This document shows, one piece after another, positions 27,431 to 52,518 of a stretch of DNA of 64,000 nucleotides. The stretch is from NCBI GenBank assembly GCA_022729235.1, contig JALDAJ010000001.1, positions 768,001 through 832,000 of the forward strand, in the 5' to 3' direction. The stretch comes from Candidatus Nanohalarchaeota archaeon. GTDB taxonomy: Archaea > Nanohalarchaeota > Nanosalinia > Nanosalinales > Nanosalinaceae. Each line of letters starts with the position of its first letter. The stretch's first letter is position 1. A program made the position numbers and the translations under genes. The notes below the pieces were generated by a model. That model did no database searches and had not been told where the DNA came from. It worked only from the letters and a program-made list of their open reading frames with translations.

Positions 27431-29536
27431 CTACTTAACCTCACTCCCTATTTCCATTTCTTCTTCTGTTCCTAGCAGTGCTACGTTGCCGTCTTCGTCT
27501 TCTGCAGCGAGCATCATGCACTCGCTCTTCTCTCCCCGCAGTTCGGATGCTTCGAGGTTGGCTAGTACCACTACCATGCGTCCTTCCAGCTCTTCTGGTT
27601 CGTAGTGGTTGACGAGTCCGGCACAGGTCTGTAATTGCTCGCTTCCAACATCTATCTGGACTTTGTACAACCTGTCCGCGTTTGGATGTTCCTCTACTTC
27701 AATTATTTTTCCTATCCTGATGTCTATTTCCTGGAATTCTTCGAATGAAATCTCGTCTGTCATTTTGACACCCTCTGTTTCTTCATCTTGTTCCTCTTCT
27801 TTTTTATCCTCTGCATCGACCTTTTCAAAGAGTACTTCTCGCTCGCCGAGCTCGTGACCGGATTCGATTCCGCCTAGAAGAGGGTCGATGAACTCGTCGT
27901 AGCCTTCCTCGGCGTGTATATCCGTGTCTAGCATATCCTCTATCTTCTCCGAGGCTTCTGGTGTGAATGGGTACAGTAACACGGCGAGTCCTCTAACAAT
28001 CTGTACTGCGACCTGTAGCACTGCTTCTCTCCTGTCTTCATTGTTCCACGGTTCTTCCTCGCTTAAGTATTGGTCGCCGAGTCTCGCAAGTTCTAGCGCC
28101 TTGTTTAGTCCTTCACGAAGATTATGGTCTTCAAACGCTTCCTGGTACTCATCTACTATCTTCTCGGCGCGGTGGATAGCTTCCTCGTCTGCCCTCTCCA
28201 GTTCCCCAACAGGTACTTCGTTGTCGAACCATTTCTCGGTTAATGCGAGCGTCCGGTTGACGAAGTTGCCGACCGTGTCGTTGAGGACGTTATTGATCTC
28301 GGATTCGAAGTCGTCCCAGGAGAACGTGGTGTCCTGTCCCTGCGGCAGGTTGCGTGATAGGTAGAACCTCCAGTAATCTGAGGGGTACATGTCCAGTGCT
28401 TCCTCAGTGGAAAGCCCTTTACCCCGCGACTTCGAGAACTTGGTGTCTTCCGCGAGCAGGAACTCCTGGATGAATTCGTAGTAAGGCATTGTGTACTGTT
28501 CTTCTTCTGTCGAGGCACCTATCAGCATCGATGGCCAGATAACGGTGTGGAATATGGTGTTGTCCTTGCCGATTGAGTAGTATACCTTGCTCTGGTAGTC
28601 TTTCCAGTACTTCTTCCATGTCGCATCGGCTTCGCCGCTGCTTTCGTGACCTTTTTCGGCAAAAAGCTCACGTGTGAATCCGATGTATCCTATCGGCGCG
28701 TCGAACCAGACATAAAGCACCTTGTTATCGTATCTCTCTGGGTCGAGCTTCTGGACGTCGAGTCCTTCGTTTTCTATTCTTTCGTTGACTCTTTCTGAGG
28801 GTATTTCGAAGCCCCAGTTGATGTCTCTCGTGATGCACCGTTGTTCTGTTCCCTCGATAGCGTTCCTGACCTCTTCTATCTTCGAGTCAGGTACTGGCTG
28901 TGTATCCGCCTCTTCCAGCCATTCGTTCAGCTTGTCCTTGAACTGTGGCAGATCGAGGAACAGGTGTGTGGTGTCCCTGAACTCTATGTCGCGCTCGCCG
29001 CAGATCTGGCACTCCGGCTCGATTATCTCTTCTGGTTCAACTAACTTTCCGCAGTCATCGCATTGGTCGCCCCGCGCTAAACCTCCACAGTGCGGGCATT
29101 CACCTTCGATGTACCGGTCAGGTAAGAAGCGCTCGTCGTTTAAACAGTACGGCAGGTTCTGCTCTTTCTCTTTTATGTAACCCGAGCAGTAAAGTTCTTC
29201 GAACATGTCATGTGTCTGTTTCCGGTTGTACTCGCTGTGCGTGTCCGAGTAGATGGAGAAGTCCATGTCCATACGTTCCAGGACTTTTTTCACTTTCTCG
29301 TGCTGCTCCTGTTTCAGTTCTTCCACCGGGATTCCGCGTTCAATAGCTTCCAGTTCCAGCGGTGTGCCGTGCACATCACTTCCGCAGACGTAGATGTTAT
29401 CCGTGCCTTTCAGGTCAAGGTAGCGGTGGAATATATCCGCGGGGAGAAGGCTTCCTACGATGTTTCCAAGGTGAGGTACTCCGTGGATGTACGGCAGTGC
29501 CGATGTAACAGTTACGCGTTCGTGTTCGAAGGTGAT
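27431..29536 (-). CDS. metG: methionine--tRNA ligase with C-terminal tRNA-binding domain; start codon unresolved
   Basis: Open frame extends upstream of the track start through VTSALPYIHGVPHLGN; zinc knuckles, YVWFDA, KFSKS and OB-fold tail present; in-frame TGA at 29539-29537. Confidence 0.95.
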   Translation of the reverse strand: MTFEHERVTVTSALPYIHGVPHLGNIVGSLLPADIFHRYLDLKGTDNIYVCGSDVHGTPLELEAIERGIPVEELKQEQHEKVKKVLERMDMDFSIYSDTHSEYNRKQTHDMFEELYCSGYIKEKEQNLPYCLNDERFLPDRYIEGECPHCGGLARGDQCDDCGKLVEPEEIIEPECQICGERDIEFRDTTHLFLDLPQFKDKLNEWLEEADTQPVPDSKIEEVRNAIEGTEQRCITRDINWGFEIPSERVNERIENEGLDVQKLDPERYDNKVLYVWFDAPIGYIGFTRELFAEKGHESSGEADATWKKYWKDYQSKVYYSIGKDNTIFHTVIWPSMLIGASTEEEQYTMPYYEFIQEFLLAEDTKFSKSRGKGLSTEEALDMYPSDYWRFYLSRNLPQGQDTTFSWDDFESEINNVLNDTVGNFVNRTLALTEKWFDNEVPVGELERADEEAIHRAEKIVDEYQEAFEDHNLREGLNKALELARLGDQYLSEEEPWNNEDRREAVLQVAVQIVRGLAVLLYPFTPEASEKIEDMLDTDIHAEEGYDEFIDPLLGGIESGHELGEREVLFEKVDAEDKKEEEQDEETEGVKMTDEISFEEFQEIDIRIGKIIEVEEHPNADRLYKVQIDVGSEQLQTCAGLVNHYEPEELEGRMVVVLANLEASELRGEKSECMMLAAEDEDGNVALLGTEEEMEIGSEVK

Positions 29537-29594
29537 TCACCTAGGGAAGTCTATGAAGGCAATTCTTTAAACAGCTTTCTTGTGTGACCTTGTG

Positions 29595-30362
29595 CTAGAT
29601 AATCCGTCTCTGTAGTTTTGCAAGGTTGGAGATGCCGTAGTCCGGGATCTGCATCTCGTCCGCATTCTTGAGTGTTTCTGAGTCTATGTCGCCGGACATG
29701 ACGGCTGCGGTCTTCATTCCCAGGTGGTTCCCGGTTTCGATATCTGCTAATCGGTCACCGATGAATATGGAGCGGTCAGGGAAGTAGCTGAAGTGTTTCT
29801 TGAAGTATTTCCTGAATATCTTCCCGGGTTTACCCGCGTCTACGGGTTCGGCGAATTCCTGGAGAGCGAGATTGACAGGTCCCTGGTGAGGCTGTTCTCC
29901 GTGGGATGTGCGGAATGTTTTCTCATTAGAGCAGATGTAGAGCTCGCCGGAACGCGCTATCCTGACGGCGCGTTTGAGCTTTGCGTAGCTGAAGTTCCTG
30001 TCGAAACCTACGACGACGATATCCGCGTCCTCGGAAAGGTAGATGTCACGTTTCTCGAGTTCCTCGATAAGACCGGATTCTCCTATTATGTATGCCTGGT
30101 TAACGTCCCTGTCTTCCAGGTGTTTCGCGACTGTATATGCGGAGGTTATGATGTCTTCTTTTTCGGCAGGGATTCCCATCGATGTCAGTTTCTTGGCGTA
30201 ATCTTCCCGTGTAAGTAGTGTGTTATCGGTGTGGAAATGGATTTTCTTTCCAGCCTCCCTGAGCGAATCGATGGTGTCTTCTGCCCCGATTATGGTTTCG
30301 TCCCAGTTCCAGAGGGTTTTATCCAGGTCGAAGAAGAAGTTCCTGAATTCATCTAGGTCCAT
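29595..30362 (-). CDS. HAD-IIA family hydrolase (NagD-like)
   Basis: FDLDKT, TDN, GKP, IGDRL.DI. Confidence 0.88.
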   Translation of the reverse strand: MDLDEFRNFFFDLDKTLWNWDETIIGAEDTIDSLREAGKKIHFHTDNTLLTREDYAKKLTSMGIPAEKEDIITSAYTVAKHLEDRDVNQAYIIGESGLIEELEKRDIYLSEDADIVVVGFDRNFSYAKLKRAVRIARSGELYICSNEKTFRTSHGEQPHQGPVNLALQEFAEPVDAGKPGKIFRKYFKKHFSYFPDRSIFIGDRLADIETGNHLGMKTAAVMSGDIDSETLKNADEMQIPDYGISNLAKLQRRII

Positions 30363-52388: not shown

Positions 52389-52518
52389 TTGTTTCACCCG
52401 TTGGTAAAGCTGGACGAACAGATTCTTTAAACGCGTCAGCCAGCCCATCAATTAACACGTTGAAACTTCCTGTCTTATCTTTATAAAACCGATATCGATA
52501 TTAATAGGGAAATGTGTA

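Follow-up and report, generated by a model that had tools for sequence, protein, structure and literature searches.

A methionyl-tRNA synthetase gene of a nanohaloarchaeon lacks a canonical start codon and is probably initiated at a UUC or AUC codon behind a Shine-Dalgarno motif

The metG gene of Candidatus Nanohalarchaeota archaeon (GenBank assembly GCA_022729235.1) lies on the minus strand of a stretch of 64,000 nucleotides of contig JALDAJ010000001.1 (positions 768,001 to 832,000), hereafter the window. It is the only methionyl-tRNA synthetase (MetRS) gene of this small salt-lake archaeon and, as in most of its relatives, it has no normal start codon; sequence comparisons indicate that it is most likely begun at an unusual codon just past the ribosome-binding site. 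The features on which the argument turns are as follows, in window coordinates:

27431..29536, minus strand: metG open frame, of 701 codons from the ATC at 29536 or 699 from the TTC at 29530, closed by the stop codon TAG at 27433-27431
29528..29530, minus strand: TTC, the preferred start candidate, homologous to the ATC or ATT of relatives and 11 nt after the first G of GGTG
29534..29536, minus strand: ATC, the alternative start candidate, the first codon after the stop and 5 nt after the first G of GGTG
29462..29473, minus strand: HLGN (the class I synthetase signature HIGH), which lies ahead of the first canonical start
28427..28441, minus strand: KFSKS, the KMSKS signature
29372..29374, minus strand: GTG, the first canonical start in frame, located 52 codons past the TTC and downstream of HLGN
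29566..29571, minus strand: TATA-like box TTTAAA
29540..29542, minus strand: predicted transcription start, which would put the mRNA 5' end at or within the AGG of AGGTGA
29537..29542, minus strand: Shine-Dalgarno (SD) motif AGGTGA, holding the in-frame TGA (29539-29537) and the out-of-frame GTG (29540-29538)
29415..29540, minus strand: out-of-frame open reading frame (ORF) of 41 codons from the GTG at 29540, probably not a gene; relatives differ in the frame that this GTG has with respect to metG

Pfam searches identify the product as a class I MetRS with a C-terminal tRNA-binding domain. The profile PF09334 (tRNA-synt_1g) is matched from position 2 to 391 of its 391 positions by residues 7-428, counted from the TTC (E-value 5.6e-129); the anticodon-binding domain is recovered by PF19303 (Anticodon_3; 1.4e-13) and PF08264 (1.8e-07), and tRNA_bind (PF01588) lies at the C-terminus. 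The protein thus has the full-length catalytic core, the HIGH and KMSKS signatures and the anticodon-binding domain by which a MetRS is recognized. No second match to MetRS occurs in the genome, which is a single contig of 1,027,595 bases (1.03 Mb), and we regard metG as a functional single-copy gene.

An earlier note on this DNA, made from the letters alone, had described metG as lacking a canonical start, and the minus strand reads exactly as it stated: TTTAAA (29571-29566), 23 nt ending in CCT, and then AGG TGA ATC ACC TTC GAA CAC GAA CGC GTA ACT GTT ACA TCG GCA CTG CCG TAC. Translated in the metG frame this gives FPR*ITFEHERVTVTSALPYIHGVPHLGN, open down to the terminal TAG. Between the in-frame TGA and HLGN there is no ATG, GTG or TTG, so that no canonical start precedes indispensable residues of the enzyme. 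The start has to lie within a few codons of 29536-29521, because the Pfam core sets in at residue 7 from the TTC, and in the solved structure of Pyrococcus MetRS (PDB: 1rqg_A) residue 3 aligns with residue 7 counted from the ATC, an arginine four codons past the TTC; this neighbourhood holds no canonical start codon. Read-through of the TGA was considered and rejected, there being an in-frame TAA 10 codons further upstream and no canonical start between the two, and so was its reassignment, since TGA terminates 414 of the 1170 long frames of the genome and is therefore taken as an ordinary stop here. A run of 54 codons without a canonical start is not rare by itself (at least 40 such codons are found in 37 of 978 chosen frames); what goes beyond chance is the onset of the Pfam MetRS core 7 residues past the TTC, together with the recurrence of this arrangement throughout the family.

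We collected 59 metG 5' ends from a comparison set of 70 genomes of the phylum, all of one order; 44 genomes including the present one belong to the family of the window (f1) and 15 to other families (f3, f4 and f5). Aligning metG 5' ends across relatives, as the earlier note had proposed, revealed that most members of the family are likewise without a normal start. An in-frame ATC or ATT (ATY) stands 9-14 nt after the first G of GGTG in 35 of the 44 family genomes (ATC in 20, ATT in 15), and in 29 of these 35 the open stretch upstream is devoid of canonical in-frame starts. The other family members have ATG at the site (three), ATG without GGTG (three), another GTG (one), GTC (one, L014) and, in the present genome, TTC. 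The few genera in which ATG occupies the same or the next codon (L013, L037 and L038) are as expected of a start position. The site thus carries a conserved non-canonical codon that interchanges with ATG, and the TTC of this genome falls within that pattern only in the wider sense of NTY. Most metG loci of the relatives also have a TATA-like hexamer 29-33 nt ahead of GGTG. The spacing between GGTG and ATY differs among relatives by single bases, with the result that the GTG within GGTG occurs in all three frames, and directly upstream of the ATC stands a TAA in L017 and a TAG in L041, which reads GTG TCT TAG ATC. These length changes and stops imply that the spacer is untranslated and that ATY is the first codon.

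Two further comparisons bear on the same site. Among 32 distinct metagenome loci of the clade, some of which duplicate genomes already counted, 24 carry ATY at the site and one (L164) carries GTC; all seven outgroup loci (40-51% identity) start with ATG. Moreover, ATA is found at the site in none of the 35 ATY genomes, as against a share of isoleucine codons of 23% over codons 1-130 of the 44 family metG genes and of 45% in the genome as a whole, and a codon that avoids ATA despite its common use elsewhere is not behaving as a sense isoleucine codon.

The GGTGA ahead of these codons qualifies as an SD motif by its complementarity to the 3' end of 16S rRNA, GGATCACCTCC. We took a census of SD spacing over frames 100 codons or longer that have a stop no more than 8 codons upstream, using the motif GGTG[AG] and counting from its first G. 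This showed 11 nt to be the modal spacing to the start in this genome: the codons at that distance include 25 ATG, 7 ATT, 6 TTG, 5 GTG and 4 ATC, as against a mean of 1.05 for the other codons and 1-2 ATT and 0-2 ATC in control frames. At a spacing of 5 nt there is no ATG among 98 candidate positions. The TTC at 29530 stands at the 11-nt spacing of ATG genes behind a motif complementary to 16S rRNA; the ATC at 29536 sits at 5 nt.

The transcript's 5' end can be predicted from the leaderless class of genes of this genome, in which TATA-like hexamers lie 28-33 nt upstream of 93 ATG starts, with GTG and TTG at three each. Applied to the first T of the TATA-like box at 29571, this distance gives a 5' end at 29542-29540. 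ATT and ATC are not enriched at leaderless distances (5 and 4 cases at TATA distances of 28-33 nt, against about 6 expected per codon). Across the whole genome the GTG, TTG, ATT and ATC starts are concentrated in the SD-led class, and starts at leaderless distance are almost all ATG. The combination of a TATA-like hexamer 28-34 nt before GGTG[AG] occurs at 42 sites, 20 of which, counted from the printed sequences, have an ATG 9-15 nt after the first G; five ATG codons 10-13 nt after the first G at such sites begin frames 120 codons or more in length. An SD at the 5' end of the transcript is, to judge from this count, not peculiar to metG and is shared with ATG genes here. We also note that the order of TATA-like box, about 30 nt, GGTGA, 4-10 nt and ATG recurs at window positions 52398 (minus), 53165 (plus) and 61212 (minus) and at about 17 more places genome-wide, and that the SD would there occupy the extreme 5' end of a leader of about 10-14 nt.

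The earlier note had further placed the SD in a palindrome, AGGTG-AAT-CACCT. The palindrome is present; it is neither conserved in relatives nor unusually stable. An SD-sequestering hairpin is predicted, and we rejected it as a regulatory element because the 53-nt 5' region folds no better than shuffled versions (z 0.46; a fold as good or better in 136 of 200 shuffles) and the hairpin is not kept in relatives; the alignment of relatives and the folding revealed no conserved RNA structure or operator in the metG leader.

Examination of the rest of the genome revealed several SD-led ATT or ATC codons directly after a stop and ahead of conserved N-terminal motifs. Three of these, each 11 nt after the first G of GGTGA, were aligned across relatives:

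genome position 442711, minus strand: lpdA, start codon ATT (L065)
genome position 178540, minus strand: RFC subunit gene, start codon ATC (L064)
genome position 173371, plus strand: T2SSF-like gene, start codon ATT (L068)

The first canonical codon of lpdA in this genome lies downstream of the GxGxxG motif, and at the aligned start of 29 readable loci there is ATT here, ATC in L103 and a canonical codon in the other 27 (ATG 23, TTG 2, GTG 2). In the RFC subunit gene the ATC stands right before the conserved W.EKYRP motif both here and in L077, with stops 2-3 codons upstream in both, and the other 22 of 24 anchored loci have ATG, GTG or TTG within a few codons; six further loci had no anchor. 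The T2SSF-like gene has ATT here after TGA TAA CCT, and the same codon is canonical in 15 of 21 other readable loci (ATG 9, GTG 5, TTG 1). The lpdA start region of L108 and the T2SSF-like start region of L231 consist of runs of N and were left out of the counts. Since canonical codons are aligned at the starts of all three genes, AUU and AUC can be read as working start codons of SD-led mRNAs in this lineage. They would accordingly be general minor starts, sporadic in the lpdA, RFC subunit and T2SSF-like genes and specially conserved in metG. Further ATT or ATC candidates after GGTGA are located at genome positions 1002240 (plus; L067), 957775 (minus; L066), 983467 (plus; L069) and 549930 (plus). 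The ATT candidate at 957775 is an M20 peptidase gene with matches in one of 40 relatives searched (two of 41 genomes including this one), the protein at 983467 has no Pfam match, and that at 1002240 is a coiled-coil protein with an N-terminal CxxC...H motif ahead of its first ATG at codon 58.

The translation machinery looks ordinary where it bears on start selection. ARAGORN, run with introns, predicts 35 tRNAs, and Rfam returns 30 tRNA matches. The initiator-type tRNA-Met is single, with a CAU anticodon, A1:U72 and three G:C pairs in the anticodon stem, the latter two of which we take to be identity features of initiator tRNA; the other relevant tRNAs are one elongator tRNA-Met, one tRNA-Ile(GAU) of elongator type and one tRNA-Ile(UAU), which serves AUA. 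Neither ARAGORN nor Rfam recovers an unusual initiator tRNA or a second, initiator-like GAU tRNA, in a tRNA set that looks incomplete, so that absence is not proven. Loss of aIF1 or aIF1A was rejected as a cause of relaxed stringency, both being encoded. The initiator tRNA, aIF1 and aIF1A hence give no explanation of the relaxed codon choice. As side observations, several expected tRNAs were found by neither program, and 20 of the 35 predicted tRNA genes contain introns (e.g. genome positions 92052-92328 and 992897-993029), that of the elongator tRNA-Met being 203 nt long.

The initiation at ATC or TTC that the earlier note had offered as one option is supported by comparison, given the modal SD spacing and the homologous ATC/ATT that 35 of the 44 family genomes carry, and we consider it likely that metG is translated by SD-directed initiation at a non-canonical NUY codon, either UUC 29530 or AUC 29536. 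In this mechanism the TATA-like box would set the mRNA 5' end at about 29542-29540, leaving GGUGA at the very 5' end of a leader of about 11 nt. The SD would then put AUC or AUU in the P site across the family, the homologous codon here being UUC 29530. The ordinary initiator tRNA (CAU) would read that codon with a mismatch at the third position, and here also at the first, and the protein would carry an N-terminal methionine by virtue of this decoding. The conservation of ATY in metG suggests selection for weak or conditional initiation of this gene.

As to the codon itself, we tentatively favor UUC 29530, at a little under even chances. It has exact homology to the ATY of the relatives and the modal SD spacing, and there are four other cases of [G/T]T[C/T] at the SD site without ATY or a canonical start, namely GTC in L014, L164 and L055 and TTT in L031. 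Tolerance of TTC would parallel the known first-base tolerance of AUG, GUG and UUG. AUC 29536 is doubtful as the start: it belongs to the codon class shown to work but abuts the SD; its counterpart varies among relatives and in L017 is a stop (TAA); and it would need a 5'-proximal, SD-independent initiation that here seems reserved for ATG. All readings other than these two, even when pooled, we consider rather unlikely.

Several observations weigh against initiation at these codons, and at UUC in particular. The 35 of 44 count and the absence of ATA in 35 are both inflated by the relatedness of the genomes, which overstates their significance. TTC is not enriched genome-wide at the 11-nt spacing (3 cases, as against 1-5 in control frames); of the two cases outside metG, that at 349102 has a plausible ATG start 15 codons downstream, the other being at 700698. 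Nor does GTC or TTC occur at the aligned starts of lpdA, the RFC subunit gene or the T2SSF-like gene. Codons two mismatches away from AUG are reported to initiate at only about 0.01-1% of the AUG level in E. coli (bioRxiv 10.1101/063800), a low level for an essential enzyme. A weak start is also not obligatory, ATG having replaced ATY in 6 of the 44 family genomes. The closest protein found (P0001, 88% identity) begins MVAFEHDR and shares the F with this metG, its called start lying three codons upstream of that residue, where the present genome has TGA; the F may accordingly be an internal residue in the clade of P0001, from which this genome would differ by a one-base offset of the GTG frame. 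Finally, 10 of the 15 genomes from other families of the order have the GTG of their GGTG in frame, which makes a 5'-terminal GTG start plausible there. Counting 10-11 nt from the first G of GGTG, one reaches TTC, TTT or GTC in 12 of the 15 loci of these families (L025-L032 and L055-L061), the remainder being L027 with ATG, L029 with ATC and L056 without GGTG. Two readings of that NTY codon offer themselves: it may encode residue four, conserved and hydrophobic, of a protein begun at a 5'-terminal GTG, or it may be the same NTY start site.

A second layer of regulation could lie on top of SD-directed initiation at an NUY codon. By analogy with infC, the yield of MetRS might follow the supply of charged initiator tRNA or the stringency of start-codon selection. 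We regard such a feedback, which would add to that initiation and not compete with it, as fairly unlikely. In its favor, MetRS supplies the substrate of initiation; metG retains ATY in 35 of 44 genomes, compared with 2 of 29 loci for lpdA and 2 of 24 for the RFC subunit gene; and the third position is only C or T, never A. The idea of a logic specific to metG is weakened, however, by the ATT and ATC starts on the three unrelated genes; within the family ATY has given way to ATG on at least four occasions and the gene was retained, and no conserved structure or operator was found in the leader.

The closest analogue in logic is infC, which encodes IF3 in E. coli, the likeness lying in the mechanism, that is, an SD with a weak near-cognate codon on a translation gene. 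Like metG, infC is an essential, SD-led translation gene with a conserved non-canonical AUU-type start that gene finders miss. IF3 itself discriminates against AUU, and the feedback loop of infC follows from this; to our knowledge MetRS has no role in codon discrimination. The two also differ in that infC is bacterial, whereas here AUC is as common as AUU, GUC, UUC and UUU variants occur, and the present genome has UUC. Together with pcnB, infC is one of two confirmed AUU starts of E. coli according to bioRxiv 10.1101/063800, which also gives AUA, AUC, AUU and CUG as initiating at about 1-2% (0.02-3%) of the AUG level with an N-terminal methionine. Ribosome profiling of Haloferax volcanii places about 30% of putative alternative initiation sites at near-cognate codons (PMC7261190). 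These E. coli and H. volcanii events are low-level or unverified, whereas the near-cognate codon would here be the sole start of essential genes, conserved across a family.

A recent, real one-base insertion or deletion that threw a formerly in-frame 5'-terminal GTG out of frame, leaving leaky initiation, an impaired gene or a gene being lost, is improbable in our judgement. It would fit the called starts of P0001 and of P0002 (85% identity; MVLIEKDR), which lie three codons before the F or I, and the in-frame GTG of L018, a locus of the same genus; moreover, one A less in GTGAATC would restore the frame. Yet the gene is single-copy and intact over 701 codons with all its signatures, the same out-of-frame AGG TGA is found in many relatives that carry ATY, and an in-frame GTG need not be a start, as the stop between GTG and ATC in L041 illustrates. 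GTG is moreover almost unused at the leaderless position in this genome, as the count of 3 against 93 ATG indicates, and the present gene would need a non-canonical start even so.

A more radical possibility, which we hold to be a long shot, is that the cognate G34 elongator tRNAs (Ile-GAU, Phe-GAA and Val-GAC) initiate at the NUY codon whenever charged initiator tRNA runs short, with the effect that too little MetRS would raise MetRS synthesis. Equally speculative is the corollary that metG translation would then be partly independent of its own product, the SD-fixed codon being AUC or AUU, here UUC and elsewhere GUC or UUU. In E. coli, elongator-tRNA initiation rises upon depletion of initiator tRNA. 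If true, such decoding would account for three features: a third base that is always a pyrimidine, with A never and G mostly not occurring there; first-base variation accepted in metG and in no other gene; and conservation in metG as opposed to sporadic use elsewhere.

A sequencing or assembly error, in the form of an extra A after GTG or of a TTC misread for ATC, TTG or ATG, is very improbable, although one base would suffice and the site includes an AA dinucleotide. An independently built contig of 61,657 nt (Logan, run X1, word depth 14) is identical over window positions 29200-29800, with no differences and no gaps, and the four other genomes or contigs with a non-ATY NTY codon at the site likewise lack a canonical start. 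Run X1 is a soda-lake metagenome and probably the source sample, and contigs rather than raw reads were compared; since the sample is probably the same, the match tests the assembly and not the biology or an independent population. Contigs of run X2 cover only 29626-29800, and those of X3 none of the locus, so that no independent sample extends over the start; among the runs listed for the locus none is of RNA. The misreading of TTG as TTC that the earlier note had entertained thus has left no sign in an independent contig set of the probable source sample.

Least credible of all is the earlier note's programmed +1 frameshift, in which translation would start at GTG 29540 and, in the manner of prfB, enter the metG frame by slipping at CTT-C ahead of CGA: the GTG is real, out of frame with metG and 31 nt from the first T of the TATA-like box, where leaderless starts lie, and the locus resembles prfB in its upstream start out of frame, its in-frame stop, its CTT codon and the presence of an SD-like motif close by, but there is no conserved slippery site and no fixed frame relation, a +1, a -1 or no shift being needed by species because the GTG occurs in all three frames, CTT CGA is not conserved (L005 reads GTG AAC CAC CAT CAC), stops interrupt the spacer in L017 and L041, leaderless GTG starts are rare here, and CGA is not obviously a hungry codon given that tRNA-Arg(UCG) is encoded. 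A leaderless mRNA beginning at the same GTG was rejected on its frame and on the rarity of GTG at leaderless distance; the locus shares with leaderless archaeal mRNAs a TATA-like box about 30 nt upstream of the GTG of GGTG and differs from them in that this GTG is out of frame and the GGTG motif would serve as an SD at the 5' end of a short leader.

Some database entries already imply ATT or ATC starts. NCBI-sourced proteins P0004, P0006, P0012, P0043 and P0047 have M exactly at the ATC or ATT of L005, L011, L015, L041 and L021, respectively, and P0046 and P0053, also NCBI-sourced, start at ATA codons further upstream; these calls are automatic and mutually inconsistent, and none concerns the TTC case. 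The entry for the present genome (P0076) is a protein of 647 amino acids from GTG 29374 that has no HIGH motif and covers 74% of the first 200 residues; it is one of 31 among the best 120 database proteins that lack the N-terminal TSALPY region. A search of the openly accessible literature turned up no paper dealing with non-AUG starts in Nanohaloarchaeota or with metG of archaea.

Two further reading frames adjoin metG. The first lies upstream:

29595..30362, minus strand (the strand of metG): ORF of 255 codons, ending 23 nt before the TATA-like box

The second, an ATG-initiated ORF of 125 codons on the plus strand (29210-29587), is antisense to the 5' end of metG and is probably a shadow of the conserved gene.

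Judged from sequence, the feature is real and conserved, a variant of non-AUG, SD-directed initiation with an unusual UUC or AUC case in this genome. Its immediate consequence is that gene finders limited to ATG, GTG and TTG cut the catalytic N-terminus off an essential MetRS and likewise shorten LpdA, which loses its GxGxxG motif, the RFC subunit and the T2SSF-like protein, and the error carries over into the protein families, structure models and metabolic reconstructions built for these uncultured symbionts. In gene calling for the clade, AUU and AUC after GGTGA should count as starts. Start-codon choice in archaea is thought to be policed by aIF1 (PMC6237735). A lineage in which AUU and AUC would be about as frequent as GUG and UUG on SD-led mRNAs, and in which UUC and GUC may be tolerated on an essential gene, offers a natural system for the study of that stringency, and a conserved weak start on the very enzyme that charges the initiator tRNA invites the question of whether the supply of Met-tRNAi and the synthesis of MetRS might be linked by feedback.

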